NCBI GenBank assembly: GCA_044221725.1
Contig: JBGAON010000003.1
Coordinates: forward strand, 96,001 to 160,000
Direction of reading: 5' to 3'
DNA length: 64,000 nt
Source of the DNA: Elusimicrobiota bacterium
Lineage (GTDB): Bacteria; Elusimicrobiota; Elusimicrobia; F11
Shown here piece by piece: positions 6,329-22,241 of the stretch. The notes under the pieces are model-generated. The model worked only from the letters and a program-made list of their open reading frames with translations, was not told the DNA's origin and made no database searches. A program made the position numbers and the translations under genes. Each line of letters begins with the position of its first letter. Positions within the stretch are counted from its first letter, which is position 1.

Positions 6329-7441
6329 TTATTTCGTGTTTTCGCGGGCGAGATCCCACCGGTACTGTAGGAACTTGTTCCATTCCTTGTACGTATCGAA
6401 CAAGTCGCCCGGAGGAAATGTCTCGATCATGCCGAAAACCATTTCGCTTTGATTGGGATCGATGCATTCAAGCGCAAACCGATAACCTGCCGCCGACTCT
6501 TGAATCTTTGTTCGCACGGTTAGAATGCCGGGGCCCGGATGATTCGTGAGAAATTCAGGATCTTCGATAATGCTGTACGCCTCATCGCGCAGTTTAAGTT
6601 CCAGTTCTTTGCGCTCGCCCGCCGTCAAGTGGGGGCGGCCTTCCAATAGCGGGCGCGCCAAATAAAAATGTTTGTAATTCGTGACCCGAAATTGCGGGGC
6701 CCGGTAAACGAGCACATTTTTGTTTTCGGAATCCACGGCATAGGAGCTCGTGGACGGACGAAATGAGAACCGATCCTCTTGAGCGGCTTCGGCGTTGCTC
6801 TTCTTGGCGCGGTCCAAGAGCCCACTGAGAAAAGTGGACCAATCGGTAAAAGCGGATTCGATGTTGGGGATCAGGTCGGAATTCTCATACGCCTTGTAAA
6901 TATCTCCGGGATAGAGCGTGGTGATCGCAAAAATTCGTTCGTCCGATTGCGCGTCGTGGCAGTCCAATTCAAATTTGGATCCTTTCAGCAGTGTGTCGGC
7001 TCGAAATGTTCGGTTGCCTTGTTTGTTCGTGTACCAGACATACGGTTTGATATCGATCACGGCGTACTCCATTCGCAGCACGCCGGGGCCCGGTTCGTCC
7101 ACAATCTGATAATGCTTTGAAACAACCGAGACGAGCTTCTGGCGTAGATTTTCCGACAGCGCGTCGTATTTCGGTCGATCCTCATCGCGTATCTTTTTCT
7201 GAGGGTTGTCATAGATCGACACAGGCATGATCAGGAATTTGTCGTAATCGATGACCCGTGTCGTCGGGTGCCGGAAAACCAGGGTCTCGGCTTTGAAATC
7301 GACTTTCTGAAAGTCTGTGTAATCGCCGAAGAAGCGGGAGTTCCTTGGCTGTTCGTGCAGCACGCAACTTGAAAGTGCCAGTGCCGAAATAAAACTCAAT
7401 TTGGTTAGTAGATTTCTTTTCAGCGGTTGTCGGATTCCCAT
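6329..7441 (-). CDS. Lipoprotein with DUF3313-like domain and a second degenerate copy
   Basis: Lipobox LSSC; YDKFLIMPV, PGPGVLR and ELDCHDAQS motifs echoed in the C-terminal third. Confidence 0.7.
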   Translation of the reverse strand: MGIRQPLKRNLLTKLSFISALALSSCVLHEQPRNSRFFGDYTDFQKVDFKAETLVFRHPTTRVIDYDKFLIMPVSIYDNPQKKIRDEDRPKYDALSENLRQKLVSVVSKHYQIVDEPGPGVLRMEYAVIDIKPYVWYTNKQGNRTFRADTLLKGSKFELDCHDAQSDERIFAITTLYPGDIYKAYENSDLIPNIESAFTDWSTFLSGLLDRAKKSNAEAAQEDRFSFRPSTSSYAVDSENKNVLVYRAPQFRVTNYKHFYLARPLLEGRPHLTAGERKELELKLRDEAYSIIEDPEFLTNHPGPGILTVRTKIQESAAGYRFALECIDPNQSEMVFGMIETFPPGDLFDTYKEWNKFLQYRWDLARENTK

Positions 7442-7482
7442 GCCCTGAAGTCTAAGGAAAAATATGTACAATCGCCACCCTT

Positions 7483-7899
7483 ATGGACCGATTCCTCCGT
7501 GCTCTCGTTAAATATTCCGCCATTGTCGTGATCTTCGCGATCATTGGGTTTGGCTTGTGGTTTTGGGGAGCGCTGAAATACATTTACTCTTCTGGTGAAC
7601 GTGCGGGTTACGTCCAAAAATTCTCGAAACGCGGTTGGATGTTTAAGACCTGGGAAGGCGAGTTGGCCATGGTCAATTTGCCCGGCGCCATGCCCGAAAA
7701 ATTTGATTTTAGTGTCGTTGATGAAACCGTCGCAGAACGTTTGTCCGGTACGATGGGTCAGCGCGTTGTCTTAAAATACGAGCAGCATCGTTACATCCCC
7801 TTGCCAATATTCGCCGAAACCGAATATTTTGTAACCGACATTTTGCCTGTTCAGGAGGCTGCGGCCCCTCAGCCGTTGCCGGTTGCAACAGAGAAGTAA
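7483..7899 (+). CDS. Conserved membrane-anchored hypothetical protein
   Basis: N-terminal TM, then the recurring motif YSxGERAGxxQKFSxxGWxFKTWEGEL. Confidence 0.75.
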   Translation: MDRFLRALVKYSAIVVIFAIIGFGLWFWGALKYIYSSGERAGYVQKFSKRGWMFKTWEGELAMVNLPGAMPEKFDFSVVDETVAERLSGTMGQRVVLKYEQHRYIPLPIFAETEYFVTDILPVQEAAAPQPLPVATEK

Positions 7900-7945
7900 T
7901 TTACCTGTTCCTTTTCCTTGCCTGACCTAATCTTCGGAGGTATTC

Positions 7946-8353
7946 ATGTTTAAAGAATTCAAGCAGTTCGTTATGCGCGGCAATGTTGTTGATTTGGCCG
8001 TCGGTGTGATTATTGGAAGCGCCTTTGGGAAAATAGTGACGTCGTTGGTAAACGACATTCTTATGCCGCCGATAGGTGCGTTGCTAGGAAGCGTTGATTT
8101 CACTGATTTGAAAGTCGTTATCAAGCAGGCTTCCGATGGAGCCAAGCCTGTCACGATAAATTACGGGATCTTCATTAACACGGTTCTTGATTTTCTAATT
8201 GTTGCTTTTTGTGTGTTTATGGTCATCAAATTCCTGCAGGGCCTCAAAAAGAAGGAGCAGCCGGCTGCTGCCACCACGAAGCAGTGTCCTGAATGTTTTT
8301 CGAACATCGCCATCGCTGCAAAGCGTTGCGCGTTTTGCACGTCGCAGCTGTAA
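7946..8353 (+). CDS. mscL: Large-conductance mechanosensitive channel with C-terminal zinc ribbon
   Basis: [31 protein letters not shown]-terminal CPEC...RCAFC. Confidence 0.97.
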
Positions 8354-8385
8354 GCGGTTACTCATATAAATAATAAGGAGTTGTT

Positions 8386-9120
8386 ATGAAGTCTCGGTTA
8401 GTGATTGGATTTACATTGATTTCGATGGTTGCGCCCGTCTTGCGCGCCGAAGATGCGCCAGCGGCGCCCAAAAAGCCGTGGAAAAGTGTAACGGAATTGT
8501 CCGTCGTGAGCTCGAACGGAAACACGAAATCCCAAAGTGCTGCTGGAAAAGAAACATTCACCTACGATTGGTCAAAAACGACCATGGAGTTGATTGGCGC
8601 GGGTTACAGTGCCAAGGACAAGGGTTCAAATACGGCGGAGCGTTACTTGGCGAGCGAAAAGCTTTCTTACAAATTGAGCGATCGCAATTATGCGTTTGAA
8701 AAATTCGAATGGAGCAAGGACCGGTTTTCGGGAATTCAGAATCGATACGACAGTACGGCCGGCTTCGGGCGAGATTTGGTGAAATCGAAGAAAAATTTGT
8801 TGCTCGCCGAGTTGGGTGGCGGTTATTTAAAAGAAGAGAGGATTTCGGAGGAAGACAAAGGATTCGCGACGGGGCGTGCCTATTCAAAGTATGTGCGCAC
8901 GTTATCTGAGACGTCCAATTTCAGCCAGGATGCCGAGTATGTTCAGAGCTTTGATGACTCCGAGGATTTTCGTGTGAAGACCGAGTCGTCGGTTACGGCC
9001 GCGATTGATTCTCATTTTGCATTGAAGTTGAGCTACATTTGGCGGCATTCGCAGAAGCCTCCAACCGGGTTTGGGCGCAACGACACGATTCTCACGGTTG
9101 CCTTGGTGGGCACCTACTAA
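8386..9120 (+). CDS. DUF481/YdiY-like outer-membrane beta-barrel
   Basis: Signal peptide; SNGNT motif; DRFSGI..RY; amphipathic strands; terminal aromatic residue (Y). Confidence 0.8.
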   Translation: MKSRLVIGFTLISMVAPVLRAEDAPAAPKKPWKSVTELSVVSSNGNTKSQSAAGKETFTYDWSKTTMELIGAGYSAKDKGSNTAERYLASEKLSYKLSDRNYAFEKFEWSKDRFSGIQNRYDSTAGFGRDLVKSKKNLLLAELGGGYLKEERISEEDKGFATGRAYSKYVRTLSETSNFSQDAEYVQSFDDSEDFRVKTESSVTAAIDSHFALKLSYIWRHSQKPPTGFGRNDTILTVALVGTY

Positions 9121-9144
9121 AGCTGTCTTAATTGCACCGAATTG

Positions 9145-9176
9145 AAAAAGGGTCTCGGGCGCCCGAGGCCCTTTTT
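9145..9176. terminator. Intrinsic terminator, probably bidirectional
   Basis: AAAAAGGGTCTCGGG-CG-CCCGAGGCCCTTTTT hairpin flanked by A and T tracts after the 8386-9120 gene. Confidence 0.85.
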
Positions 9177-9187
9177 ATTGCCTTTTA

Positions 9188-9206
9188 ATTGAAATAGTAT
9201 TTCAAT
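9188..9206. promoter_or_regulatory. Fur-family operator (perfect 9-1-9 palindrome) next to a sigma70 -35 element
   Basis: ATTGAAATA-G-TATTTCAAT, with TTGACA at 9213-9218; precedes metal-related genes and dps. Confidence 0.7.
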
Positions 9207-9359
9207 AAGTTATTGACACGTGGTGGCCACATTTTCTATATGGCATGCGGCCGTGAGCAGCGCATGGATATTTTCTCCTGTGTTGATCGCCCGCTGCCGG
9301 AGGGGAACAGCCACCCCTCCGGTTATAATTTGAAAAATTAAATCATTAAGGAGATATTA

Positions 9360-10193
9360 ATGTTTGGAAAGTTGAGAAGTAAGAAGTTGTTGATGAGCGG
9401 CGCGCTCATCGGATCGTTGTTTGGACTTGGAAGTTCGGTGGATGCAAACACGCGCCATTTCACGTACACGTATGAGAGTGCGGTGCTCGCCCCAGGCGCA
9501 CGGGAATTTGAATTATGGAACACCTATCGGACCGGACGTCATGAGTTTTACACGCAATTTGATCACCGCGCCGAGTTTGAATTTGGCCTCACTAAGAAGT
9601 TGCAAACCTCGTTGTATTTAAATTGGCAAACGATTTCTCAAATCGATCACACAACGACACCGGAAAGTATCGCGACAGCATCCGAATTCAAGGGTATTTC
9701 TTCAGAATGGAAATATCAGATGACCGACCCGGTGGCGGATAAAATCGGATCCGCCCTCTACGGCGAGGTGTCGCTGGGCACCGATGAGATGGAACTTGAG
9801 TCGAAACTCATTCTCGATAAACGGCTTGGAAGAAACTTGTTTGCTTACAACTTGGTGTTGGCCGGAGCATGGGAGCGCGAGCCCGTCGAGTGGGAATACG
9901 AGGAGACCGAACTTGAAAACAATCTCGGTTGGACGCATTTCTTCAAAGAAAATTTCGGTGCGGGCCTTGAGCTCCGCAACCACACCGAATTCACGAGCGA
10001 AAACCATCCGGAACATTCTTCTTTGTTCTTGGGGCCCGTTGTTTCGTATTCTGCGGACAGCTGGTGGTTGGCGTTCACATCGATGTGGCAACTGCCGGCA
10101 ATCAAGCGATCGGTGAGCGATCCGAATTCGGCTCTCGTTTTGGACGAGCACGAACGGTTCAACGCCCGGTTGCTATTGGGGTTCCATTTCTAA
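9360..10193 (+). CDS. Putative outer-membrane beta-barrel (DUF6662-like)
   Basis: SD AAGGAG; signal peptide; FTYTYE..VL.PG..EFELW and EFEFGLT motifs; ends in GFHF. Confidence 0.7.
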   Translation: MFGKLRSKKLLMSGALIGSLFGLGSSVDANTRHFTYTYESAVLAPGAREFELWNTYRTGRHEFYTQFDHRAEFEFGLTKKLQTSLYLNWQTISQIDHTTTPESIATASEFKGISSEWKYQMTDPVADKIGSALYGEVSLGTDEMELESKLILDKRLGRNLFAYNLVLAGAWEREPVEWEYEETELENNLGWTHFFKENFGAGLELRNHTEFTSENHPEHSSLFLGPVVSYSADSWWLAFTSMWQLPAIKRSVSDPNSALVLDEHERFNARLLLGFHF

Positions 10194-10194
10194 T

Positions 10195-10536
10195 TTGAAA
10201 ATTCGTAGTTTCACTATCTCGTTTGTTGTTATTGGTTTGATTGCCGGGTGTGCCACGATGCTTCCGCACGTCACACCCGGCCAAGCAAGCCAGTTGGCCG
10301 GCAAATGGCCGGATATGACGGTCGAAAAATACGAGGAAGCCAGGACTCTTTACACAAACCGCTGTTCCGGCTGTCACAATTTGATCCTTCCAAAGAAATT
10401 AACATTAGCGAAATGGCAGCCCATGCTCGACAAAATGGCGCCGAAGGCACGAATAAACGCCGAACAGAAAGAACTTTTGTGGCGTTACATAGCGGCCGCA
10501 AAAGAAGTGGTTCCCGAAGCCACAAAGCAGAATTAA
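10195..10536 (+). CDS. Monohaem cytochrome c lipoprotein
   Basis: TTG start; lipobox IAGC; CSGCH haem motif; likely distal Met in KMAPKA. Confidence 0.8.
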   Translation: MKIRSFTISFVVIGLIAGCATMLPHVTPGQASQLAGKWPDMTVEKYEEARTLYTNRCSGCHNLILPKKLTLAKWQPMLDKMAPKARINAEQKELLWRYIAAAKEVVPEATKQN

Positions 10537-10551
10537 GATTTGCAGGTTAAG

Positions 10552-10929
10552 ATGAAGACTCTATTCCAAATTTTCCTCCTGACGGCCATCATTGTTGGGT
10601 CAAGCCCAGTTTCAATGATTGTGGGTCCAGCAAATCAGGAATGTTCGATGTGCGGGCACGCTTGTTGTTGTCCGGAGATTTGCGCGTTGAAGCGTGCCGC
10701 GCTTCGCGCTCGCTGCAAACGGGATTTGTGCAGGATCGGAGCCTCTCATTCATTCGGAATGGGCGCGACCGACCAACCGTCAACGCGTGTGGACTCCCCG
10801 CTCGCCGTTTTGAACGCTGCGGCGTTAAAACCATCCATGGAATTTGCGCGCGCAACTTATCAATCGAATTCCTTCGGTTCACTTACTCCCGAAAATATTC
10901 TCACTCCTCCGCCAAGAGTTCTTCTTTAA
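10552..10929 (+). CDS. Cys-rich small exported protein with C-terminal TPPPR; candidate CutF/CruR-like leader
   Basis: Hydrophobic N-terminus; CSMCGHACCCPEIC plus two more Cys; ends ILTPPPRVLL; lies directly upstream of a His/Cys-rich barrel gene. Confidence 0.65.
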   Translation: MKTLFQIFLLTAIIVGSSPVSMIVGPANQECSMCGHACCCPEICALKRAALRARCKRDLCRIGASHSFGMGATDQPSTRVDSPLAVLNAAALKPSMEFARATYQSNSFGSLTPENILTPPPRVLL

Positions 10930-11013
10930 CTCCAATCTATCGTTAACGTCATTTAAATTCGTTCGATCGTCTTTGGATCAAACGATTGGTTTATTTTTTT
11001 TTCTGGAGGATTT

Positions 11014-11994
11014 ATGAAAAGGTTCATTTCTGTTTTAGCCGTATTTTTATCGATCACCGCGCCGCTATTCGCGAGCTGTGGATCGGCGTCATGCCCAATT
11101 GATATTTATTCGATGGATCGCACCGAGAAGGGATTCGTGCGGGTCGACTATTCCTATGAGTATATCGACCAGAATCAACCGCGCATCGGACGGCAAGCGG
11201 CCGCGGTCGGTGAAATTCGCGGTCACCATGACGAAGTTTACACGCTGAACCAAACGCAACGACTTGGAATTGATGTGGGGCTTGCGTCGCGTTGGAATTT
11301 GCAGTTGGTGCTGCCGTTTGTTCACCGGGAGCACGATCACATTCATCATCACATGGGAGCGAATGTGAACGAGAGTTGGAATTTTAATGGCATGGGCGAC
11401 CTGACTCTGTTGAATCGCATCGGCTTGAACACGCCAGCGAGTCCGGCATCGCCGTATCTTGCGGCGATCATCGGCGGCGTGTTGCCAACGGGGCGTGAGC
11501 AAGCCCAAAATGCCGATGGCGATGACGCCGAGATCGGGATTCTGCCAGGCAAAGGTGCGTATTCTCTTATTTTGGGCGTGTCCGAGTCTCAGTCTTTCAA
11601 AGCCAAGACGTTAAACGGGCTGTACGCGCGCGTGCCGATTTTTGTGAGCTCGACATACCAGTGGAACGGCAAAGGCACCGATGATTATCGTGTCGGAGAT
11701 ATTTGGCTCGCAAACATCGGCGTCACGTATCCGTTGCTGCCCAGGCTCGGTTTTATAAACCAGTTGAACTTTCGTGTAAATCTGCGGGATGACAAAGGGA
11801 ACACGCGGGAAGAAGTCGAAAAGACTGGCGGCAGCTATTTGTATTTCAGCCCAGGAATTCAATTGACGTTTGCCGAAAACCTCTGGTCTTATATGATTGT
11901 GCAGCTGCCGTTGTACCAACGCGTGAACGGAATTCAGCTGACGTCCGATTCAAATTTCTTGCTGGGCATGTCGTACAAATTCAGCGCATTGTAA
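11014..11994 (+). CDS. His/Cys-rich outer-membrane transporter-like beta-barrel (putative metal channel)
   Basis: SD GGAGGA; signal peptide then SCGSASCP; GHHDE; HREHDHIHHH; GMGDL and LPTG motifs typical of SphA/phenol-MetA-like channels. Confidence 0.75.
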   Translation: MKRFISVLAVFLSITAPLFASCGSASCPIDIYSMDRTEKGFVRVDYSYEYIDQNQPRIGRQAAAVGEIRGHHDEVYTLNQTQRLGIDVGLASRWNLQLVLPFVHREHDHIHHHMGANVNESWNFNGMGDLTLLNRIGLNTPASPASPYLAAIIGGVLPTGREQAQNADGDDAEIGILPGKGAYSLILGVSESQSFKAKTLNGLYARVPIFVSSTYQWNGKGTDDYRVGDIWLANIGVTYPLLPRLGFINQLNFRVNLRDDKGNTREEVEKTGGSYLYFSPGIQLTFAENLWSYMIVQLPLYQRVNGIQLTSDSNFLLGMSYKFSAL

Positions 11995-12008
11995 TTAAGG
12001 AGACAGAC

Positions 12009-12485
12009 ATGAAGACGAACATTGGAATTGGCGAAAAAGAGCGGATGGAAGTTGTGAAGATTCTGAACCGGAATTTGAGTGACTTGTATGTTCTTCTGAC
12101 GAAGACTCGCAACTACCACTGGAATGTGGTGGGGCCTCGCTTCAATGACTTGCACAAGTTTTTCGATGAACAGTATGAACAATTAAACGAAGCCATTGAT
12201 GAGGTGGCGGAGCGTGTAAGAAGCCTTGGCGGAAAAACGGTCGCGACACTTAAAGAATTCTCGCGGCTGACACGGTTAGAGGAACAGCCGGGCAAATATC
12301 CGCCGGCGGATCGTATGCTGGCACGCTTACTGGAGGATCACGAGCAGGTTATCCGAACTTTGCGCCAAGATGTGGATGACACCAACGAAAAATATCATGA
12401 TGTCGGCACGAGTGATTTTTTAACCGGGCTAATGGAGTCTCATGAGAAAATGGCATGGATGCTAAGGTCCTTTCTCGAAAAATAA
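12009..12485 (+). CDS. dps: DNA starvation/stationary-phase protection protein (ferritin-like)
   Basis: NYHWNVVGPRFNDLHKFF, DEVAERVRSLG and HEKMAWML motifs. Confidence 0.97.
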   Translation: MKTNIGIGEKERMEVVKILNRNLSDLYVLLTKTRNYHWNVVGPRFNDLHKFFDEQYEQLNEAIDEVAERVRSLGGKTVATLKEFSRLTRLEEQPGKYPPADRMLARLLEDHEQVIRTLRQDVDDTNEKYHDVGTSDFLTGLMESHEKMAWMLRSFLEK

Positions 12486-12742
12486 AAACGCTTCGCTTAG
12501 TATTAGCGCTGCTTGCTTGTGCGTCCATTGTCACCCATCTGGGGCATGCGGACGCCAAGCACGCGCGTCTTACCGATAACGACTGCACAATTTGTCACGC
12601 ACTTACCTCGTCGGATATCTCGCACGATGTTGGTTTGGGTCCGCGGATGGTTTCCTGGGAAACGGCATTTTTTGATGTTCCATTCGTTTCTTTTTCCGCG
12701 TCTTTATCGCTAACCTTTCCTCGCGCGCCTCCCACCGTTTAA
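12455..12742 (+). CDS. DUF2946/CruR-like leader protein with CxxC and C-terminal RAPP
   Basis: Hydrophobic segment, HxxHxxxxH, DCTICH, ends PRAPPTV; the start overlaps the dps 3' end and is uncertain. Confidence 0.75.
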   Translation: MDAKVLSRKIKTLRLVLALLACASIVTHLGHADAKHARLTDNDCTICHALTSSDISHDVGLGPRMVSWETAFFDVPFVSFSASLSLTFPRAPPTV

Positions 12743-12799
12743 CGATCAAAAGCTGTGACTCGAGCTCCCGCTCGGGTATTCGATCTTTAGGAGGCCGTT

Positions 12800-13978
12800 A
12801 TGCGTCTCAATATCTCAAAATTTTTTGCCGTGTTTATTTTTGCAGCAGGCTCTTTCTCGGTTGGTTCCGCGGACGTTACTATGGAAGAGGTGCGTGCAGA
12901 AATTCAAAAGCAGATTGAAGCTGTATCAAGACCCGCCAGTAATCCGAGTGTGTTCAATCCCGCGATGGGACTGACCCTCGATGCGGTGGCCTCAAACACC
13001 ACGTTGAACCAAGGAAATTTTGACTTTCGGTCGGCCGAATTGAATGTTCAAGCGGCGATCGATCCGTTTGCAAAATTGTTTGCCGTGTTTAATGGAACTC
13101 CCGATGGATTTGAAGTAGAGGAAGCGTTTTTCATGACCACTTCCTTGCCCGCGGTGACCGTTCGCGGCGGCCGGATGTTTGCGAATGTTGGCAGGCTGCC
13201 CCATTGGCATGATCACGAATTACCGTTTGTGAACCGACCCGCGTCCGTTGATCGTTTCGTGGGTGGCGAGTCGCGGGCAGACGGCGTTGAAGTGATGCAC
13301 TTGTTTCGAACGCCATTTTTTCTGCAAGGAACCCTGGGCGCTTACAACAAAATCGGGTCGGACAACGATCGTCTTGAGTCAAACACCGGCAACGATCATC
13401 GCTCCGGTCGGCCGTGGGATGCGTTTACCTATCTTGGTCGCCTGTTTTCGTACGTGCCGTTTGGGGACAATTTTGGTGTGGATGTTGGCATCAGCGAAGC
13501 GTGGACACCGAGACAATATTTTATCAACGGAAACGAAGTGAGTCTTGGAAATGCATCCCGGTCTTTAACGGCCGCTGATTTCACGTTTCGATTCGAACCA
13601 CTGGAGAACAATGTTTTCCGGAAACTGTTGTGGGGAACGGAAATTTTCCGCAACAGTGAATTGCGCGAAAAGAACGACGCGACCGCCGGACTTATATATC
13701 CCCGGCAAACATCAGCGGGGGGGTATTCGTACATCGATTGGCGATTCGCTCGTCTGTGGAGTGCGGGACCCTTCTATGATCACGCCGAAGATATTGATGA
13801 TCCTCACATTCAAACCGATAGCGGCGGCGCGATGTTGAATTTTCTTCCGTCGGAGTTTCAGCGAATTCGTTTGCAAATCAGTCGCGTAAAGACCGAAGGG
13901 ATGCGCGAAGATAATCAAGTTTATGTGCAGTACTTCGCGACAATTGGTTCGCACGTGCACGTGTTTAAAGACCGTTAA
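12800..13978 (+). CDS. Zinc-uptake-associated outer-membrane beta-barrel
   Basis: SD AGGAGG; signal peptide; FNPAMG, AIDPF, VEEAF and HWHDH motifs; C-terminal GSHVHVF; first gene of a Znu-type operon. Confidence 0.75.
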   Translation: MRLNISKFFAVFIFAAGSFSVGSADVTMEEVRAEIQKQIEAVSRPASNPSVFNPAMGLTLDAVASNTTLNQGNFDFRSAELNVQAAIDPFAKLFAVFNGTPDGFEVEEAFFMTTSLPAVTVRGGRMFANVGRLPHWHDHELPFVNRPASVDRFVGGESRADGVEVMHLFRTPFFLQGTLGAYNKIGSDNDRLESNTGNDHRSGRPWDAFTYLGRLFSYVPFGDNFGVDVGISEAWTPRQYFINGNEVSLGNASRSLTAADFTFRFEPLENNVFRKLLWGTEIFRNSELREKNDATAGLIYPRQTSAGGYSYIDWRFARLWSAGPFYDHAEDIDDPHIQTDSGGAMLNFLPSEFQRIRLQISRVKTEGMREDNQVYVQYFATIGSHVHVFKDR

Positions 13979-13997
13979 CCTTTTTAGGAGAAAAAAT

Positions 13998-14909
13998 ATG
14001 AAACGAATAATTTGTTTTTTTATCGCGATCATTTCATTAACAGTATTGCCGAATCTATCGTGGGCCAAACTCCGGATTGTTGCGACGACACCGGATTTGG
14101 CCGATATCGCCAAGCAGATTGGAGGGGAGCAGGTGGATGTGGAAAGTTTGGCGAAAGGTACCGAAGACATTCACACGGTGCCGCAGCGGCCAAGCTTTGT
14201 TCCAAAACTCAACCGCGCCGATGCTGTTGTGTTGCTGGGTTTCGATGCCGAGCACGCGTTTTTGCCGGCGCTTCTTGATGTGGCTCAAAACCCGGCCCTT
14301 ATGCCCGGCAAGAACGGCTACATCGACTGCAGTGTTGGTATCAAGCCATTGGACGTGCCCGCCATCATTTCGCGTGCCGAAGGCGAACAACATCCGCTCG
14401 GCAATCCGCATTACAATATCGATCCACGGAATGGAGCTGTCATCGCAAAAACAATTTCGTCGGCATTGGCGCGATTGGATCCGTCGCACGGAGACGTTTT
14501 TGTAAAAAATGAAAATGCGTTTGAGTCGAAGCTCAAGGGCCGTTTGGAGGAATGGAACAATGAGCGGAAAACCCTCATCGGAACAAAAGCCGTCTCGTAC
14601 CACCCGTCGATGGCGTATCTGGCCGATTACCTGGGGATCAAAATGGTTGGTACGCTTGAGCCCAAGCCTGGTATCGCCCCCACGCCCAAGCATCTCGAAG
14701 AGCTTGTGCAGAGAATGAAATTGGAAAATGCCACGTTGATCTTGCGAGAAGTGCAATACAGCGATCAGACGGCCAGTTGGCTGGCGGCGCAAACAGGCGC
14801 AAAAGTCGCTACAGTGGCAACAATGGGCGGCGCTTTTCCGGATTCAGGGTCCTATATCGGAATGATCGCTCACAATATTCGCGCGATCGTCGCCACGCAA
14901 TCGAAATGA
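13998..14909 (+). CDS. Zn/Mn-type ABC transporter substrate-binding protein (ZnuA/TroA family)
   Basis: SD AGGAG; EDIH, HPLGNPHY, VSYH and EPKPGIAPTPKHL motifs. Confidence 0.9.
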   Translation: MKRIICFFIAIISLTVLPNLSWAKLRIVATTPDLADIAKQIGGEQVDVESLAKGTEDIHTVPQRPSFVPKLNRADAVVLLGFDAEHAFLPALLDVAQNPALMPGKNGYIDCSVGIKPLDVPAIISRAEGEQHPLGNPHYNIDPRNGAVIAKTISSALARLDPSHGDVFVKNENAFESKLKGRLEEWNNERKTLIGTKAVSYHPSMAYLADYLGIKMVGTLEPKPGIAPTPKHLEELVQRMKLENATLILREVQYSDQTASWLAAQTGAKVATVATMGGAFPDSGSYIGMIAHNIRAIVATQSK

Positions 14910-15616
14910 ACAGCGAAAAGGAATACCCGTTGATTCGCGTCGAGCAAGCGTCGTTTGGCTACAACGGATCCGCTATTGTTGAAAACGTAACGCTGGATAT
15001 TAACGCAGCGGATTTTATTGGGCTTGTTGGTCCGAATGGGGCCGGAAAGAGCACGTTGTTCAAGGGCCTGCTGGGTTTGATCAAGCCTCTGCGAGGGAAT
15101 GTTTGGCACGCGCCGAGGATCAAGCGGCGCATCGGTTATGTGCCACAGCGCGATCAGTTGGACGCCGTTTATCCTCTTACGGCATTTGATGTGGCCTGCA
15201 TGGGGATTACGGGCGGGTTACCGTGGTACCGCTTTTCTTCGGAAGAGACCGACAATTTGGTGCGAGCGACGCTTAAAAGGGTGGCCATGGATGACAAATC
15301 GGAACATCTCTTTGCCGAAATGTCGGGCGGGCAGCGCCAACGGGTACTGATTGCTCGGGCGCTTGCGATTAAACCGGAAATTCTTGTTCTCGATGAGCCA
15401 ACAGCCGGGATTGACCCGGTCGCGGAGGAAAATATTCTGAATCTTCTGCACGAACTAAACCAAAATGAACGGTTGACGATTCTTATGGTTTCTCATCACA
15501 TCCATTCGTTGCGACAACATGCGAACCGCGCGGTGCTCATCAAAAATTCGGCGGTGATTAGTGGCAACGCCGAACAACTGTTGCATCCGCAGAAAATTGT
15601 TGAGCTTTTGAGTTGA
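14906..15616 (+). CDS. Metal ABC transporter ATP-binding protein (ZnuC-like)
   Basis: GPNGAGKST, IGYVPQ, MSGGQRQR and LDEPTAG motifs; ATGA overlap. Confidence 0.9.
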   Translation: MNSEKEYPLIRVEQASFGYNGSAIVENVTLDINAADFIGLVGPNGAGKSTLFKGLLGLIKPLRGNVWHAPRIKRRIGYVPQRDQLDAVYPLTAFDVACMGITGGLPWYRFSSEETDNLVRATLKRVAMDDKSEHLFAEMSGGQRQRVLIARALAIKPEILVLDEPTAGIDPVAEENILNLLHELNQNERLTILMVSHHIHSLRQHANRAVLIKNSAVISGNAEQLLHPQKIVELLS

Positions 15617-15618
15617 TC

Positions 15619-16491
15619 ATGAAAGATATTATTTTGATTTTTCAACCAAGTTTCCTGCTGCACAACGCATTATGGGGGTGTATCGCGGTCGGGTTTTTCT
15701 GCCCGGTGATCGGGGTTTATTTTATGCTGCGACGAATGGTCTTGCTCGGCGTCGCGTTGCCGCAAATTTCCGCCAGCGGTATTTCGCTCGCATTTTTTTT
15801 ACAGGGTCTCGGGGTTGCGTGGACATTCCACGCGGGAGAACCAAACGACCGATTGCTGGCGCTGATGGGTTCGAGCGTGTTGACCGTGCTCGCTATTCTG
15901 GCGCTCGCATCGCTCGAGCGTCGCGGAGAGGGAACAACCGACAGCCGCATCGGTGCGACGTATGCGTTTGCTTATGCGGCCGCGATATTGTTTGTGTCTT
16001 CCAATGCCTCCGGCAAATCCGAGATGTTGAGCATGTTGCAGGGGGAGGTGGTGTCGGTCAACCATGAGGATTTGCAGATTCTCATTGTTGTTTATGCGGT
16101 GCTGGCCGCTTTGCTGCTTTTCTTTAATCGGCAATTCGTTCTCGTTTCGTATGACCGTCAGTCGGCCAAAGTGATGGGCAAGAACGTGATGTTTTGGGAC
16201 GTCTTTCTTTATCTCATTATTGGTTTTGCAATTTCGATCGGCGTGCTGATCGTGGGGCCGATGCTCACGTTTGCGTTCCTCGTGGTACCACCGCTTGCGG
16301 CACGTCGGTTCTGTCGCTCGATGCGATCTTTTTTTGTGATTTCATCTTTGCTGGGAGGAATTTCGGCCGCGATCGGATTTTATTTGTCGTACCATCTCGA
16401 CTGGCCGTTGAGCCCGACAGCGATCGCCGTCACGGCCATCGCCTTGGTTTCGGCATTTTTATTTAAGCGAATTCATAATATTATTGCCTAA
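15619..16491 (+). CDS. Metal ABC transporter permease (ZnuB-like)
   Basis: GVYFMLRRM, SYDR..A...G and VG..L..AFLVVP motifs; many TM segments. Confidence 0.9.
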   Translation: MKDIILIFQPSFLLHNALWGCIAVGFFCPVIGVYFMLRRMVLLGVALPQISASGISLAFFLQGLGVAWTFHAGEPNDRLLALMGSSVLTVLAILALASLERRGEGTTDSRIGATYAFAYAAAILFVSSNASGKSEMLSMLQGEVVSVNHEDLQILIVVYAVLAALLLFFNRQFVLVSYDRQSAKVMGKNVMFWDVFLYLIIGFAISIGVLIVGPMLTFAFLVVPPLAARRFCRSMRSFFVISSLLGGISAAIGFYLSYHLDWPLSPTAIAVTAIALVSAFLFKRIHNIIA

Positions 16492-16493
16492 CA

Positions 16494-17207
16494 ATGACCC
16501 CGTCGCTTACGATGAAACGTTTTGCGGTTGCAACACTGTTTGTGGTCTTGCCGATTTGCGTGCGCGCCCACGAAATCCCGATTTTTCCCGTGGACGTTGA
16601 GATGAAGATCGAATCGCACGAAATTCATGTGACGATCGAATCCAAAGCGGGGATCTGGTTGGATGAGATCCTTTCGGTCCCTTACACAAAGCCGTTGCCC
16701 GCCACCCATTGGGACCCTGTCTACGAACAGAAAGCGCGAGAGGAAGTGAAAAAATCTTTGCACATTGGAATGGATGGTCGCGAACTGGATTTCACCAAGT
16801 TTGAGTGCCGGTTTGTCCAAGAACCCTTGAACGAACAGTCGGCCAAAGTTGTGTTCGACGTGCATTATCCGATTGTCGCTGTTGGAAAAGAGATAGCGGG
16901 GATTTCTCAGTTCTTCGTGCCTCATTGGATTGAGCAACAAAAGTCAAAAGATCCCGATCGCAAAGCGGATGTATTTGAAACGCGGCTCCGCGTCATCGGC
17001 AGCAAAACGTTGCAGCTCTCTTTGCCCATCAATAAGCCGGCGTTTCGTTTCTCTACAAACGGCCTTTTATTTACGGAACAACAAAAACGTTTTGAAAAAA
17101 TCCGAGCGATCGGTGTGCGTTTGATGAGCAGCGCATTTTTTTGGATTGCGCTTATTGCGATCGTCGCGCACATCGTCAAACGGGCAAAACGGAGGAGAGA
17201 AGAGTGA
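16494..17207 (+). CDS. Exported hypothetical protein with mature N-terminal His and C-terminal TM anchor
   Basis: Signal peptide ending VRA-HE; C-terminal TM plus basic tail; inside the operon. Confidence 0.65.
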   Translation: MTPSLTMKRFAVATLFVVLPICVRAHEIPIFPVDVEMKIESHEIHVTIESKAGIWLDEILSVPYTKPLPATHWDPVYEQKAREEVKKSLHIGMDGRELDFTKFECRFVQEPLNEQSAKVVFDVHYPIVAVGKEIAGISQFFVPHWIEQQKSKDPDRKADVFETRLRVIGSKTLQLSLPINKPAFRFSTNGLLFTEQQKRFEKIRAIGVRLMSSAFFWIALIAIVAHIVKRAKRRREE

Positions 17208-17980
17208 GCGTTATTTCGTTCCACAATCTAACGAAAATCTACGAACGATCCCATCTGGGTCGCGTGAAAAAATCATTGGGACTCTCCGGACTAACGCTGG
17301 AGATTCAGAAAGGAGAGGTTTTCGGATTGCTCGGCTTAAATGGGTCCGGCAAGACAACCACGATCAAGCTTTTGTTGGGCCTTTTGTCGCCGACGAAAGG
17401 CAAGGTGGAAGTGATGGGCCGGCGCATGCCGAACCTCGAGTCGCTCAAGCACATCGGCTATTTGCCCGAAGCGGCCTACGTGAACAAGTATTTAACAGGC
17501 CGCGAGGCGGTGCGGATTTTTGCAAAGCTTTCGAAGATGCCCGTTAACGGGCGCGAAAAGGCGGTGAACGAAATCCTCGATAAAGTGGGCCTTTTGAACA
17601 GCGCGGACCGCCGCATTTCGGATTATTCAAAAGGAATGATGCAGCGCGTAAGTATGGCGCAGGCTCTCATACACGACCCCGATATTCTCATTATGGACGA
17701 GCCCGTCACCGGTCTCGATCCGCTCGCGATTCAGGAGTTGCGCCAATTGATTCTTTGGCTCAAGTCGCGCGGGAAAACCGTTTTTCTTTCGTCGCATAAC
17801 ATTTCAGAAGTGGAGCGTGTTTGTGATCGAATCGGTATTTTGGCGGCCGGCAAACTCGAACTCTTGATGGCGGCGTCCGAATGGCGCGGCCAAGAAGGAA
17901 AATTGGAACATGTGTTTGCTTCGTCAGTGAAGCGATCCGAAAGTATTGGGGCACTCAAATTTATCGAGGGGGCGAACTAA
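17204..17980 (+). CDS. ABC transporter ATP-binding protein (PilH-like exporter type)
   Basis: GTGA overlap; GLNGSGKTT, IGYLPE, YSKGMMQR and DEPVTGLDP motifs. Confidence 0.88.
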   Translation: MSVISFHNLTKIYERSHLGRVKKSLGLSGLTLEIQKGEVFGLLGLNGSGKTTTIKLLLGLLSPTKGKVEVMGRRMPNLESLKHIGYLPEAAYVNKYLTGREAVRIFAKLSKMPVNGREKAVNEILDKVGLLNSADRRISDYSKGMMQRVSMAQALIHDPDILIMDEPVTGLDPLAIQELRQLILWLKSRGKTVFLSSHNISEVERVCDRIGILAAGKLELLMAASEWRGQEGKLEHVFASSVKRSESIGALKFIEGAN

Positions 17981-18747
17981 TGGAAACGTTGTTGGCGGTC
18001 GCCAATTACACGCTGAAGCAACACGTGCGGAACCGCGTATTTTTGTCGGTGGTTTTGTTCGGATTGGTACTTGTGTTTGGAGGCGTCGTCATTTCCGCGT
18101 TGGCGGTGGAAGAACAGCTGCGCATGATGATCGATTTGGGCCTGTCGGGAATTGAATTTCTCGCACTGGTGACGGTGCTGTTTGTGACCGTGAATCTTGT
18201 GCTCGAAGAAATGGAATCACGAAGCATTTATCTCATTTTGAGTCATCCGATTGAGCGTTGGCAATACATCGTCGGTCGATTCCTCGGAACGGTGACAGCG
18301 CTAACCGTGGGGATTCTCGTCATGGCGCTGCTTCATCTTGGAAGTCTTTATCTGTACGGATGGCGGCTGGAAGCTTTTTATCCGATAGCGATCGTGTGCT
18401 CCATTTTTAAAATTGCGGTCGTCAGTGCGCTCGCGCTCTTGATTTCGCTGATCACCACGTCGACCGCCTCCTCGATGACGCTTACCGGATTTCTCTGGGT
18501 GCTGGGTCATTTCTCCTCTGAAATTCGGTTCATGGCCGAAAAATCCGCAAATCCCTTGGTTAAGGCATTGAGTCAGTTTTTGGAGTACGTGACGCCGAAC
18601 TTCAATTACTTCAACTACCGCGACTTTTGGAACGCAGCGGCAATTCCGCCGCCGGCGTGGTTTGGTTGGATGGCCACTTATTCGTTTTCTTATCTCGGTA
18701 TCGCGCTCTTTCTAACCAGTTGGATTTTTTCAAACAAGGAATTTTGA
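17980..18747 (+). CDS. ABC-2 type permease (PilI-like)
   Basis: Six TM segments; E..SIY.ILS.PI.RWQY..GRFLG motif. Confidence 0.85.
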   Translation: METLLAVANYTLKQHVRNRVFLSVVLFGLVLVFGGVVISALAVEEQLRMMIDLGLSGIEFLALVTVLFVTVNLVLEEMESRSIYLILSHPIERWQYIVGRFLGTVTALTVGILVMALLHLGSLYLYGWRLEAFYPIAIVCSIFKIAVVSALALLISLITTSTASSMTLTGFLWVLGHFSSEIRFMAEKSANPLVKALSQFLEYVTPNFNYFNYRDFWNAAAIPPPAWFGWMATYSFSYLGIALFLTSWIFSNKEF

Positions 18748-19448
18748 TGTCGCGAATCGATCTGCGCAAAGGACTGTTGTTGCTTGCGTTTGGGTTTGTG
18801 TTCGTGGTTTCACAAATACAATTGCAGCGGACATACCGGTTGCCGTTCCCGCCTTTAAGCGCACTGGAGACGGGTCCGAATACCCTGCAGGACGTTTCGT
18901 TTATTTTGACCGGATTTCGTCGGCTGGCCGCCGATGCGGCGTGGGTGCAACTGCTCCAAGGGATGGGCGATTACGGAAACGACGAGGTGCGATCCACGAA
19001 AAGTTATCCTCATCTTAAGCGTGACACGCTGCGAGTCACGCGTATCGACCCCTATTTCCAGAAAGCCTACTTGTTCGGCGCGGCCACCTTGGCGTGGCTG
19101 AAAAGCACGAACCGCCCGGACGAAGCGATTGAACTGATTTCAGAGGGTGTCCGGTACAACCCGACATTTTGGCCGCTACGCACGTACGCCGCCGGAATTG
19201 GCTACATGAAGAAAAATCAGCTCGGCAGTATGGTTCGCATACTTGAAGATGCGACGTCGGATCCCGATTGTCCAACGATTGTGAAATCAATTTTGGCGAA
19301 CTCTTACAAATTGCAAAAACGGTACGCTGACGCGTTGGCCATCTGGCGTGAGATTCTGTCGTCAGAAAAAGGCCGGGATTATCACGATCGCGCGCGGGAA
19401 GAAATCGCTAAGTTGGAAGTTCTTTTAAGTGAAACGCCCGCGCGTTAA
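18747..19448 (+). CDS. Membrane-anchored TPR-like protein (PilG/XapA-like)
   Basis: N-terminal TM; RRLAADAAW, TRIDPYF..AY and GVRYNP..W helical repeats; follows the ABC pair. Confidence 0.6.
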   Translation: MSRIDLRKGLLLLAFGFVFVVSQIQLQRTYRLPFPPLSALETGPNTLQDVSFILTGFRRLAADAAWVQLLQGMGDYGNDEVRSTKSYPHLKRDTLRVTRIDPYFQKAYLFGAATLAWLKSTNRPDEAIELISEGVRYNPTFWPLRTYAAGIGYMKKNQLGSMVRILEDATSDPDCPTIVKSILANSYKLQKRYADALAIWREILSSEKGRDYHDRAREEIAKLEVLLSETPAR

Positions 19449-20431
19449 TTCATCCAAAATTCTTTTTGCCGAATCGCTATGTCGGCCAGCGCTTCGATAA
19501 AAACCGGATAATTGTTTAGCCCCGGTACCCGACGGAATTCTTTGATTCCAGCCTCCCTCGCCTCCTCTGCTAATTCCTGATCCAGCTCGTACAGGGTTTC
19601 AATGTGATCGGTCACGAACGCGATCGGAGCGACCAGAACCTGCTTCGCTCCTTGCTGACCAAGTTCGAGGATCACTTTTTCGGTGGACGGTCCGAGCCAT
19701 TTCACGGGGCCGAGTTTTGATTGCCATCCCAATGTCCATGGTCCATTCCAGTTGGCTTTTTCGAGAATACTTTTTACGGTTTGTTCGACTTGATCGCGGT
19801 AAGGATCTCCCATTTTTGTGACGAGGTTTTCCGGAATTGAATGAGCCGAGAACACCAAATGAATATTCTTGTGTGACGGATCTGAAAAACTGTGCGCAAT
19901 CGAACGAATGAGATCAGCATGCGCTTGTATAAATTTTGGGTGCGTCGCCCACGAACGAACTTCAAACAACGAGGCCTGCGGCGCCCATTTTTTGACAGCG
20001 ACCGATGTGCGGTCGAGCGCGCCTTTCGTTGTTGTCAGCGAAAATTGCGGATAGAGTGGGAAAGCCAAAATCTTTTTTACGCCGTTTCTGCTGAGGTCTT
20101 TCACAACGTCTTCCACAAGCGGATCCGAACAAGTGAAAGCAGTCCGCACGTCGGCTTGTAGGCCGCTAGCAGACAGCGCTGCGCGTGTGGCGTTTGCTTG
20201 TTCGTCTGTGAGCCGGCGAATCGGAGAGCCGCCGCCAATCTTCTCGTACATGAGACGGGACTCTTTTTCGCGCATGGTCGAGATGGCCCACGCCACAAAT
20301 TTTCGCAATGGCGTGAATTTGATTCGAATAATTTCCGGATCGCTGAACAATCGATAAAGAAAAGGCCGAACGTCTTTTTGCTTTTCGGGACCACCGAGAT
20401 TTAGGAAAAGAATTGCACGTTTGAGTTCCAT
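19445..20431 (-). CDS. hemH: Ferrochelatase
   Basis: LNLGGP, GGGSP, PLYPQFS, FSAHS, WQSKLGP..WL and FVTDHIETLYE motifs. Confidence 0.97.
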   Translation of the reverse strand: MELKRAILFLNLGGPEKQKDVRPFLYRLFSDPEIIRIKFTPLRKFVAWAISTMREKESRLMYEKIGGGSPIRRLTDEQANATRAALSASGLQADVRTAFTCSDPLVEDVVKDLSRNGVKKILAFPLYPQFSLTTTKGALDRTSVAVKKWAPQASLFEVRSWATHPKFIQAHADLIRSIAHSFSDPSHKNIHLVFSAHSIPENLVTKMGDPYRDQVEQTVKSILEKANWNGPWTLGWQSKLGPVKWLGPSTEKVILELGQQGAKQVLVAPIAFVTDHIETLYELDQELAEEAREAGIKEFRRVPGLNNYPVFIEALADIAIRQKEFWMN

Positions 20432-20496
20432 TGGCTTGGTGATACAAAAATTGTATGCCACCAGTTCATAAATTCAAATTCAGGAGTTTAATTTTC

Positions 20497-20649
20497 ATGA
20501 GTCATCGCACAAAAAGCGGCCAGAAGCGCAAACGTCACGCCAACGATCAACGTTGGAAACGGCGTTTGAAACGCAAAAAAGCCGCGCTGATTGCGGAAGG
20601 CAAGATTAAGAAAGGTGTTGCCCCCGTTTCCAGCCAACCCAATTCTTAA
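20497..20649 (+). CDS. Small highly basic protein (50 aa)
   Basis: SD CAGGAG upstream; MSHRTKSGQKRKRHANDQRWKRRLKRKK; occupies its own intergenic space. Confidence 0.65.
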   Translation: MSHRTKSGQKRKRHANDQRWKRRLKRKKAALIAEGKIKKGVAPVSSQPNS

Positions 20650-20795
20650 TAAGCGGATTGAATTTCCGCCTCAAACCCCTTACGCTTGGAATCAAATCGA
20701 CAGTCTAAGCCGCACGCCAAAAAGTGGCGGAGCAGCGCGGATTGTTCGGTTTCGATTCTATGCGTCGCTCGGAGCAGAAAAATAACATCTCTTTA

Positions 20796-22241
20796 ATGCC
20801 GCGCCGGTCATTCGACGGGCGTTCCGGCGTTATTAAGCTCACCTCTCCTCGACCCATCTGGAAAAAGAATCCACACCGATGGCTTCCGGCGCTGTTATTC
20901 GCGTTGCTGCTGGTGTTGGTCCTTGCGTTGTTCGGACACGCGTCGCCACCATCGAGCCGCGGTGCACGTCCCATTGCCCTTGGCAATGGATACACGGCTG
21001 AATCCGGGGATATCTACTCGCTTTTCTACAACCCGGCGGGTCTCTACGAAATTAATCAACAAGAATTCACTTCCGATTATGGACGTTCTTACAGTGAAGG
21101 TGAATCGGCGCGATCCGATTTTAATTTCATGTACGCGACCCCGTACCGGTTCAAAGACCAAAATTATCCTATTGGCGTTGGGCTTTACGAAGAAAGTCCC
21201 GCTCCGGGAGCCCACATTATTGATCTCACCGCCGGCACCGCAGGCGATGCCCCGCTCGAACAGTGGACGAAGGGCATTCTTAAATTTCCGGCCAAAGTCG
21301 GGCTTGCCGCAACGTTGCGTCAACAACACGGAAGCGATGTGTCCGATCGCGTGGGAAAGTCTTCTTTGGGACTTGGCTTGACGGGTGGATTTCTTTTCCC
21401 AATCAATCGCAAATTGCAGGCCGGTCTCGCGATTCGTCGTCTTTTTAATCCGGGCGCCGATTCCGAGGGACCTTCGCTGAACGGCGGAGTTCGTTTTCGG
21501 TACGCCGATTATCTTCATATGTACGGTGATATCGAATTTTCGAGCGGTGGTATTTGGAGCATTCATCCAGGTTTTGAATGGTTGCTTGCGCGCGGCGTCT
21601 TGCGTCCACGGCTGGGATGGGGTTTTCATGACACGGGCGGAATCGATCTTTTGGCCACCGGTATCGGGTTTTATGTGTCGCCGATGCAAATCGACGTTAG
21701 CTACCTGATCCCGTTAAAGACGGTAAACGATAACGCCGGGCAGTTCCGCGCCTCGTTCAGTTATCGGTTTGGTCGACCTCAGTTTTCCGAAATTTATTAC
21801 GACCGGGCACTTGAACAGGCCAGTCAATTGGATCAGAGCGTCGTCATCATGACGTCGAAAGAAGCGGAGCTCAAAGCATCATTGGCCGAGCTCGAACAGA
21901 AAAAACGGATTGCCAAAGAAGAGCTCGATAACGCGAAAGCGCGAATCGAAGCGTTGAAGAATCAAGATTTGCTGGGCGAACGCGATGCGGTAATTCGCGA
22001 CTTGAAGGTACGCATTCGGGATTTGGAGTCAAACCTGTCGTCGGAGCGAGGAACGTTAAAAGCGATCCGTCAAAAACAAGCAACGGTGCGCACGCACAAA
22101 GTGTCGGCCGGCGAAACGCTGCAGAGCATCGCGCGCGATTACTACGGCGATCCGAACCAATGGAAGAAAATCTACACGGCGAACTCCGACAAGATCGAAC
22201 GTGGGTTGCCGAAAACCGGTTCAACACTGGTTATTCCATGA
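20796..22241 (+). CDS. PorV/FadL-like beta-barrel plus coiled coil plus LysM (start uncertain)
   Basis: Signal-like hydrophobic run; GARPIALG...YNPAGL; barrel ends FSYRFG; C-terminal HKVSAGETLQSIA..YYG...WKKIY.AN (LysM). Confidence 0.8.
   Translation: MPRRSFDGRSGVIKLTSPRPIWKKNPHRWLPALLFALLLVLVLALFGHASPPSSRGARPIALGNGYTAESGDIYSLFYNPAGLYEINQQEFTSDYGRSYSEGESARSDFNFMYATPYRFKDQNYPIGVGLYEESPAPGAHIIDLTAGTAGDAPLEQWTKGILKFPAKVGLAATLRQQHGSDVSDRVGKSSLGLGLTGGFLFPINRKLQAGLAIRRLFNPGADSEGPSLNGGVRFRYADYLHMYGDIEFSSGGIWSIHPGFEWLLARGVLRPRLGWGFHDTGGIDLLATGIGFYVSPMQIDVSYLIPLKTVNDNAGQFRASFSYRFGRPQFSEIYYDRALEQASQLDQSVVIMTSKEAELKASLAELEQKKRIAKEELDNAKARIEALKNQDLLGERDAVIRDLKVRIRDLESNLSSERGTLKAIRQKQATVRTHKVSAGETLQSIARDYYGDPNQWKKIYTANSDKIERGLPKTGSTLVIP

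Follow-up and report, generated by a model that had tools for sequence, protein, structure and literature searches.

A candidate RAPP arrest leader whose stall codons can pair with the Shine-Dalgarno sequence of a probable zinc-uptake operon in Elusimicrobiota

The 64,000-nucleotide stretch of DNA analysed here (the window; positions 96,001 to 160,000 of contig JBGAON010000003.1, assembly GCA_044221725.1, from an Elusimicrobiota bacterium) carries at 12455-12742 (+) a short open reading frame (ORF) ahead of an operon for a porin and an ATP-binding cassette (ABC) importer. We consider it fairly probable, judging from sequence and comparison, that this ORF is an arrest leader of the CruR/CutF type heading a metal-uptake operon, and that its stall codons double as an anti-Shine-Dalgarno (anti-SD) sequence. 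Copper-sensing leader switches are already known, and this ORF most likely belongs to a variant of them. At the comparative level the whole arrangement is conserved: an export signal, His residues, a Cys pair, a linker of fixed length and an R[AGS]PP end, ahead of genes for a porin, a solute-binding protein (SBP), an ATPase and a permease.

Read from the ATG at 12455, the leader is 95 amino acids long (86 from the ATA at 12482); its frame is open over all 95 codons, and both other frames contain stops. By hydropathy its N terminus has an export-type signal with a basic n-region, a hydrophobic 12-mer of mean 2.9 and an A-D-A site. The signal-like segment (L15-V26) is followed by His28, His31 and His36, by C44-x-x-C47-H48 and His57 and, after a 42-residue linker, by RAPP at residues 90-93, with Thr-Val before the stop codon. 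The RAPP codons CGC GCG CCT CCC occupy 12722-12733 (+) and form, by analogy, the predicted arrest site, with Pro92 (12728-12730) in the P site and Pro93 in the A site. RAPP is scarce in this proteome, with 7 occurrences in long ORFs against 17 for AAPP. The Cys pair is invariant across 26 aligned leaders, and the signal segment is conserved among them. The 42-residue spacing falls just short of the 45 +/- 1-2 seen in the CruR family.

With a profile built without the window's genus the leader scores 40.3 bits, whereas the best of 200 shuffles reaches 7.3; in a six-frame scan of the genome it ranks top (41.2 versus 15.8). The locus is not an assembly error, because contigs from two other studies agree with positions 12201-12490 and 12613-12926 without a single difference. 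Two RNA sequencing runs cover parts of the region at a depth of 1-7 and leave the bin 12710-13060 uncovered, which is too thin for a statement on expression.

The original prediction likened the leader to DUF2946 proteins such as CruR and required it to be conserved ahead of homologous barrels, and the second part is borne out. A search with the porin yielded 187 loci besides the window; removing 13 duplicates, 22 without a placeable start and 4 with less than 400 nt upstream left 148 distinct loci. At 136 of these a same-strand frame ending in [RL][AGS]PP lies within 300 nt of the porin, a rule satisfied by only 14 of 1451 long ORFs in the window's own genome, and 130 of the 136 contain the Cys pair. 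Kinship with DUF2946 (PF11162) holds at the level of layout, which resembles that of CruR and CutF, and falters at the formal cut-off. The leader has no Pfam match at E<=1 and no Pfam or NCBIfam family assignment. It does not reach the DUF2946 gathering cut-off of 23.7 bits, which 2 of 97 representative leaders pass; 10 of 26 relatives match weakly, and one leader paralogue in a congener passes at 24.7. A protein search with the leader profile gave 15 matches, and a look-alike cluster in the Atlas is 54% DUF2946. By sequence, the leader is thus DUF2946-like, outside formal membership.

For statistics we used 97 representatives below 45% identity, a set to which the window and leaders from the profile search also belong; the loci are kin to each other, so all p values are overstated. 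The motif is RAPP in 63, RGPP in 22, RSPP in 10 and LSPP in 2. The Cys-to-motif spacing, for which the rule permitted 35-55, is 41-47 in 95 of the 97 and 43-44 in 66, and the median gap to the porin is 80 nt. At least two His residues precede the Cys pair within 20 residues in 88 of 95 leaders. Four leaders upstream of the porin (L158, L171, L177, L183) have no Cys pair and carry HTH...EHD instead, with the RAPP end kept; a His/carboxylate metal site is possible there. The named porin relatives are Elusimicrobiota, with further loci in Eisenbacteria, Acidobacteriota, Gemmatimonas, Ignavibacteria, Planctomycetota and metagenomes; within the window's class, 46 of 61 genomes have a porin match, its own genome counted.

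The 12 porin loci that failed the rule were inspected, and three (L080, L091, L217) have a variant or more distant leader. At L077 and L079 a Fur-family gene stands in the leader's place ahead of the porin operon, L089 has an operator-like palindrome over the promoter and no leader, and at L087 the porin follows an efflux gene. The arrangements at L077, L079 and L089 suggest exchange between transcriptional and arrest control.

The second main feature is the pairing between the stall codons and the porin start. GCCTCC at 12727-12732 (+), within the Ala-Pro-Pro codons, is the exact reverse complement of the porin Shine-Dalgarno (SD) sequence GGAGGC at 12790-12795 (+), 4 nt ahead of ATG 12800; positions 12723-12725 and 12796-12798 lengthen the helix by 3 bp. 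Between them, in the 57-nt intergenic region, lies a nested hairpin, ACTCGAGC-TCCC-GCTCGGGT, at 12758-12777 (+), with 8 bp including G-U pairs, no U-tract and a z score of -1.8. The ORF features, RAPP codons, complementarity and hairpin described in the original prediction were all confirmed in the sequence. The genome's 16S 3' end carries the CCTCC anti-SD. The pairing is the minimum free energy structure of 12700-12815 (z -1.6, equalled by 17 of 200 shuffles), and single-locus z scores range from -1.6 to -2.3. Drawing synonymous codons at the genome's own usage produces GCCTCC in 4.6% and CCTCC in 10% of cases. The complementarity at this locus alone is mildly beyond chance; the family statistics lift it above chance.

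Across the family, 47 of 97 leaders spell the first Pro of the motif CCT, where 12.0 would be expected from the individual loci, and CCC falls to 11 against 29 expected. CCT accounts for 73 of 514 other Pro codons in the leaders and for 27 of 165 at Pro-Pro pairs of the porin and SBP, and its excess recurs separately in four groups (26/45, 5/11, 7/12 and 9/29). The motif-SD duplex is more stable than synonymous draws at 66 of 97 loci (p 2e-6), with -15.6 versus -9.8 kcal/mol in the window. These biases indicate that, throughout the leader family, synonymous selection favours Pro-Pro codons that complement the SD.

With a 31-nt stall footprint removed, the SD becomes cheaper to open by a median of 2.8 kcal/mol in the family, compared to 0.02 in ordinary gene pairs. 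This comparison covers 91 loci, six with long gaps being left out; the gain exceeds 2 kcal/mol at 55 of the 91 loci and at 7 of 51 ordinary gene pairs, and is 2.7 in the window. The mean opening cost falls from 9.7 unmasked to 7.8 with the motif masked and 7.7 with the stop codon masked, and a mask 45 nt upstream brings no reduction. A structure shielding the SD that a stalled ribosome could melt, as in CutF, has support in the family as a whole but depends on the folding window at this locus. Folding shows a modest preference for hairpins in the intergenic region (median z -0.96, 92 loci). Among 56 anchorable loci, two positions 3' of CTCC covary with the SD flank (28 versus 20.3 and 27 versus 18.1). 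No intrinsic terminator was called between leader and porin, and an Rfam scan of 7000-21000 found no riboswitch.

We propose the following mechanism, modelled on ApdA/ApdP and CruR. A ribosome would halt with Pro92 in the P site, covering the anti-SD and leaving the SD 62 nt downstream free. Metal bound at the His/Cys residues, 45-64 residues from the P site, would relieve the arrest; sensing could occur in the cytoplasm, as in CruR, or in the periplasm, as in CutF. A terminating ribosome would also cover the anti-SD briefly, and output should then follow ribosome dwell time.

Several observations weigh against this proposal. RAPP alone is insufficient for arrest, whose context dependence is documented, and for this peptide arrest and metal response are predicted by analogy. 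The footprint gain is 2 kcal/mol or less at 36 of 91 loci; in the window the opening cost with downstream RNA only is 7.4, against a control mean of 6.2, and its drop is matched by 4 of 51 controls. The original prediction expected masking the stall codons to free the SD. The footprint gain agrees with this, but when the upstream mRNA is left naked and 12713-12743 is masked, a second SD-complementary stretch in the leader coding sequence, 12646-12656 (+), takes over the pairing and drives the cost up from 10.6 to 12.3 kcal/mol. This stretch, seen in folding only, forms 11 bp with several G-U pairs, and in the window 12600-12850 it wins even unmasked: the probability of the proposed pairing is 0.99-1.0 in folding windows starting at 12650 or 12700 and 0.03 in that one. 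Queued ribosomes could cover 12646-12656. The anticipated covariation of anti-SD and SD is likewise limited to the two flanking positions, with none at 8 of 10 among the same 56 loci; cognate and non-cognate duplexes differ weakly (Wilcoxon p 0.17), and the permutation test, with p 1e-4, also gives p 0.008 and 0.02 at two of its five control offsets. The SD of the leader itself is weak, and the ATG found after the dps stop in congeners is missing. As for the metal, the flanking dps and ferrochelatase genes point to iron, and Fur models score the Fur-family genes at L077 and L079 better than Zur models do, every score being below cut-off.

The strongest competing account is the mechanism proper to CruR, in which the stalled ribosome mainly shields a C-rich rut site and blocks Rho-dependent termination ahead of the porin; the pyrimidine-rich codons would serve Rho, with SD pairing secondary. 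We regard this as unlikely, though several observations speak for it. Rho-dependent termination is the mechanism shown for CruR (PMC9426467), the genome encodes Rho, and the nested hairpin could serve as a pause site for it. The 60 nt ahead of the Arg codon also show a C>G skew of 0.21, against -0.01 in the porin, and third-position G is depleted in the last 12 leader codons (0.24 versus 0.37, 95 loci). C-richness fits less well with the first Pro codon, however, where the bias is towards CCT at the expense of CCC, as pairing with GGAGG would favour, and covariation at two positions also favours SD pairing. Both may act. The anti-SD of the original prediction thus survives as a selected feature; CruR itself acts through Rho, a mechanism with which the present data also agree. 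Pure accident, with Pro-Pro codons that happen to lie beside a GGAGG and an ordinary small exported protein, we consider very improbable: the frequency of CCTCC in synonymous draws and the modest single-locus z scores would allow it, but the codon bias, footprint effect and fixed spacing are family-wide, and RAPP is rare in the proteome.

Two further accounts concern this genome and the cue. The switch might be degenerate or rewired here, with its own start lost, the leader rarely translated, and the SD mostly occluded or following dps translation. The deletion of the congeners' ATG stretch, which leaves a weak-SD ATG at 12455 inside dps and ATA 12482, and the occluding stretch at 12646-12656 speak for this reading; yet the 95-codon frame, the His residues, CxxC, spacing, RAPP and anti-SD are all intact, an in-frame ATG is found here and not in the congeners, as expected of a replacement start, and low-level translation holds for CruR too (PMC9426467). 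We therefore give degeneracy little credence. We are similarly sceptical of a different cue, either a metal-induced stall in the direction of CutF, which Cu stalls, opening an SD-shielding stem-loop, or monitoring of Sec export or disulfides like SecM/ApdP. The signal segment is conserved, and sec and dsbA-type genes are among those with a RAPP leader upstream, but the target here is an importer, and zinc limitation induces its Vibrio homologue; most leaders have at least two His residues ahead of the Cys pair, and the four leaders that retain His without the Cys pair are unexpected for a disulfide monitor.

How the leader is started differs between the window and its relatives. In the window's genus it lies directly downstream of dps (ferritin-like, PF00210; 12009-12485, +), and here the two overlap by 31 nt (12455-12485, +): ATG 12455 arises from the dps codons GCA-TGG, and ATA 12482 overlaps the dps TAA by 4 nt. 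In two congeners these codons are GCC-TGG, so that the in-frame ATG 12455 is found only in the window among these genomes, and the leader ATG stands 6-13 nt past the dps stop, in a stretch deleted from the window genome. In the genus, the leader is probably translated by coupling to dps, and the start change is possibly a replacement start with dps coupling or a partial decay. In most relatives the leader appears to be the first gene. A TANNNT hexamer lies 4-8 nt ahead of a candidate start in 33 of 91 leaders, against 1 of 97 porin starts, a contrast somewhat inflated by allowing several candidate starts per leader, and many of these leaders also have TTGAC upstream; leaderless mRNAs are therefore indicated in many relatives. 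No promoter-like site was called directly ahead of the window leader.

The gene behind the switch, 12800-13978 (+), encodes a 392-residue protein to which Pfam and NCBIfam assign no family. Its predicted structure (pLDDT 83.7) is a barrel of 16 long strands, closest to the porins OmpT, OprP and OprO (TM 0.58 for OprP/OprO), and H137, E140, H385 and H387 are invariant across 30 sequences. TonB-dependent receptors are 22-strand barrels with a plug domain; the length, modelled strand number and best folds of this protein appear to rule out that class. It is followed by a cluster A-I SBP (PF01297; 13998-14909, +), whose best solved match is the zinc-uptake binding protein 2ov1/1pq4 with three His sites aligned, and by family matches to an ABC ATPase of the ZnuC/AztA/MntA type (14906-15616, +) and an ABC-3 permease of the ZnuB/AztB type (15613-16491, +). 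Eight tightly packed genes span 12800-19448, as first described, including a secreted protein of unknown function, an ABC-2 ATPase, an ABC-2 permease and a TPR protein (16494-19448, +). These last four are a genus-level appendage: gene 5 follows at 1 and genes 6-8 at 0 of 60 long loci, and all four occur in three congeners only. An eight-gene conserved operon is thus rejected, and by sequence the conserved core consists of porin, SBP, ATPase and permease. A convergent ferrochelatase gene (19445-20461, -) runs towards the operon and overlaps its end by 4 nt, a layout shared by two congeners.

The barrel plus ZnuABC-type target named in the original prediction stands, and the operon under the leader is probably a zinc-importing system, with zinc the leading candidate metal on homology grounds. 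The SBP is closest to a solved ZnuA. In V. campbellii there is a homologous locus (porin profile E 1e-54, SBP E 3e-36). A TGTTATAACATAACA box, identical at 13 of 15 positions to the Zur site core in PMC9817125, stands 17 nt ahead of its start, and its listed ORFs include no RAPP-type leader. According to that paper, the omr-znuAII-znuBII cluster of V. campbellii and V. parahaemolyticus belongs to a predicted Zur regulon and rises 1034-, 543- and 283-fold on zinc limitation; homology to the window porin and SBP was established for the V. campbellii locus. Three such leaders occur in one congener: one heads the porin, a second heads an ABC block with DUF3299 (ZrgE-like), and a third follows a MerC-like gene. 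The second also favours zinc, and a ZIP transporter represents the neighbouring gene cluster at 7 of 167 loci. Fur/Zur-type consensus patterns occur upstream of 2 of 91 leaders against 0 control stretches, and AT-rich palindromes upstream of 7 leaders and 7 controls, none of either near 12455; the leaders thus showed no conserved operator.

In one congener (L061, G002:C12, 4845-18066; L062, 2194-11061) three leader paralogues lie within 13 kb. A Fur/Zur-like box covers the -35 element of the first, and the third precedes a 2955-residue His-rich membrane protein.

Among the known systems closest to the leader is CruR (Bp2923, DUF2946/PF11162), which precedes bfrG in Bordetella pertussis (PMC9426467) and arrests at RAPP in vitro (PMC12992588). 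The two share an export signal, CxxC, a spacing that is conserved within each family, a C-terminal RAPP and a metal-import operon, and the window operon is likewise predicted to be ON when metal is scarce. They differ in that the CruR target is a copper TonB receptor rather than a plug-less porin with a cluster A-I ABC importer; the window leader also has an added His cluster, an intergenic region of 57 nt instead of 162, and a score below the DUF2946 cut-off. CruR-type leaders are the first gene of a copper operon, whereas this one follows and overlaps dps. CruR acts through Rho, and here the anti-SD lies inside the arrest codons. CutF-cutO of Rhodobacter capsulatus (bioRxiv 2022.11.11.516240, 2025.02.05.636593) also has a secreted leader with a metal motif, on which stalling melts a structure that shields the SD, but uses CxxxC and PPP, is stalled by copper and controls a detoxifying oxidase; its stem-loop is described as intergenic, whereas the SD-shielding partner in the window is formed by the arrest codons. 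The window leader, with 95 residues, Pro-Pro at 92-93 and a 57-nt gap, passes the CutF-like filters of Ozturk 2023 (fewer than 150 residues, a signal peptide, PP in the last 15 residues and a same-strand gene within 1000 nt). SecM, ApdA, ApdP and uDF_RQH (PMC10987492, PMC10951233) share the RAP-P arrest chemistry and the exposure of a sequestered SD by the stalled ribosome, SD release being shown for SecM-type leaders (PMC10987492), but sense secretion force, control sec/yidC genes and have no metal motif. The Vibrio cluster (PMC9817125) has the homologous porin and SBP but a Zur-type operator, with no leader seen and no ATPase gene in the stretch examined.

Both characterised metal-sensing leaders respond to copper. 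The source table of Fujiwara et al. (EMBO J 2025; PMC12992588) lists at least 9 RAPP upstream ORFs ahead of genes annotated as 'zinc-regulated TonB-dependent receptor', a protein that our results suggest is a His-lined porin, and at least 137 ahead of DUF2796 genes; 'zinc', 'DUF2796', 'Shine-Dalgarno' and 'stem-loop' are absent from the main text. A Zur-activated efflux operon of Caulobacter begins with a DUF2946 gene (PMC4176598). In the literature covered, mostly without subscription papers and some supplements, we found no zinc-responsive RAPP leader and no arrest codons acting as anti-SD. The general switch is already known and the leader/receptor pair appears in a published table, and the zinc link and the codon-embedded anti-SD would be the new part. 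With the latter, synonymous changes would make it possible to tell the RNA switch apart from arrest by the peptide. According to the CruR paper (PMC9426467), neither Cu nor Zn has a described riboswitch, and a zinc-responsive arrest peptide, if true, would fill this gap and show that the class is tunable to other metals.

More tentatively, and as something that we hold conceivable rather than probable, Zur-type control of a zinc porin and ABC importer may be replaced, in Elusimicrobiota, Eisenbacteria, Acidobacteriota and others, by a widespread and mostly unannotated family of Zn(II)-sensing arrest leaders whose Pro-Pro codons are selected as anti-SD; in the window's genus the leader would have been captured through dps coupling, with two arrest leaders stacked on possibly one transcript.

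The other of these two is an unrelated Cys-rich leader at 10552-10929 (+), ending TPPPRVLL, ahead of another barrel gene (11014-11994, +). In folding its CCTCC pairs with the GGAGG of that gene, and it does not match the RAPP-leader profile. Among six close barrel homologues with a placeable start, the window's own not counted, four (L233, L235, L236, L239; not L234, L237) have a Cys-containing leader with a proline-run end. The block of DUF6662, cytochrome c, leader and barrel genes, 9360-11994, lies between DUF481 and dps here and not in two congeners; it looks like an insertion, and two arrest-type leaders may lie on one transcript. A perfect AT-rich palindrome, TTGAAATAGTATTTCAA, at 9189-9205, just upstream of TTGACA 9213-9218 and 155 nt ahead of the DUF6662 gene, is a candidate operator, and a strong hairpin follows at 9296-9323.

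Elsewhere in the genome, two paralogous secreted-type ORFs (G000 C1:162845-163261, -, and C5:9707-10123, +) have His residues, CxxC and, 47-49 residues later, RAPP or RSPP. Each of these arrest-type leaders precedes a 660-residue membrane protein whose family is unknown and whose end is TPR-like, a target that is no obvious metal transporter. In the PMC12992588 source table, DUF2607 (ZrgD) proteins appear among the RAPP upstream ORFs before DUF2796 (ZrgA); the zrg zinc operon, which Zur regulates, may thus itself begin with an arrest leader.

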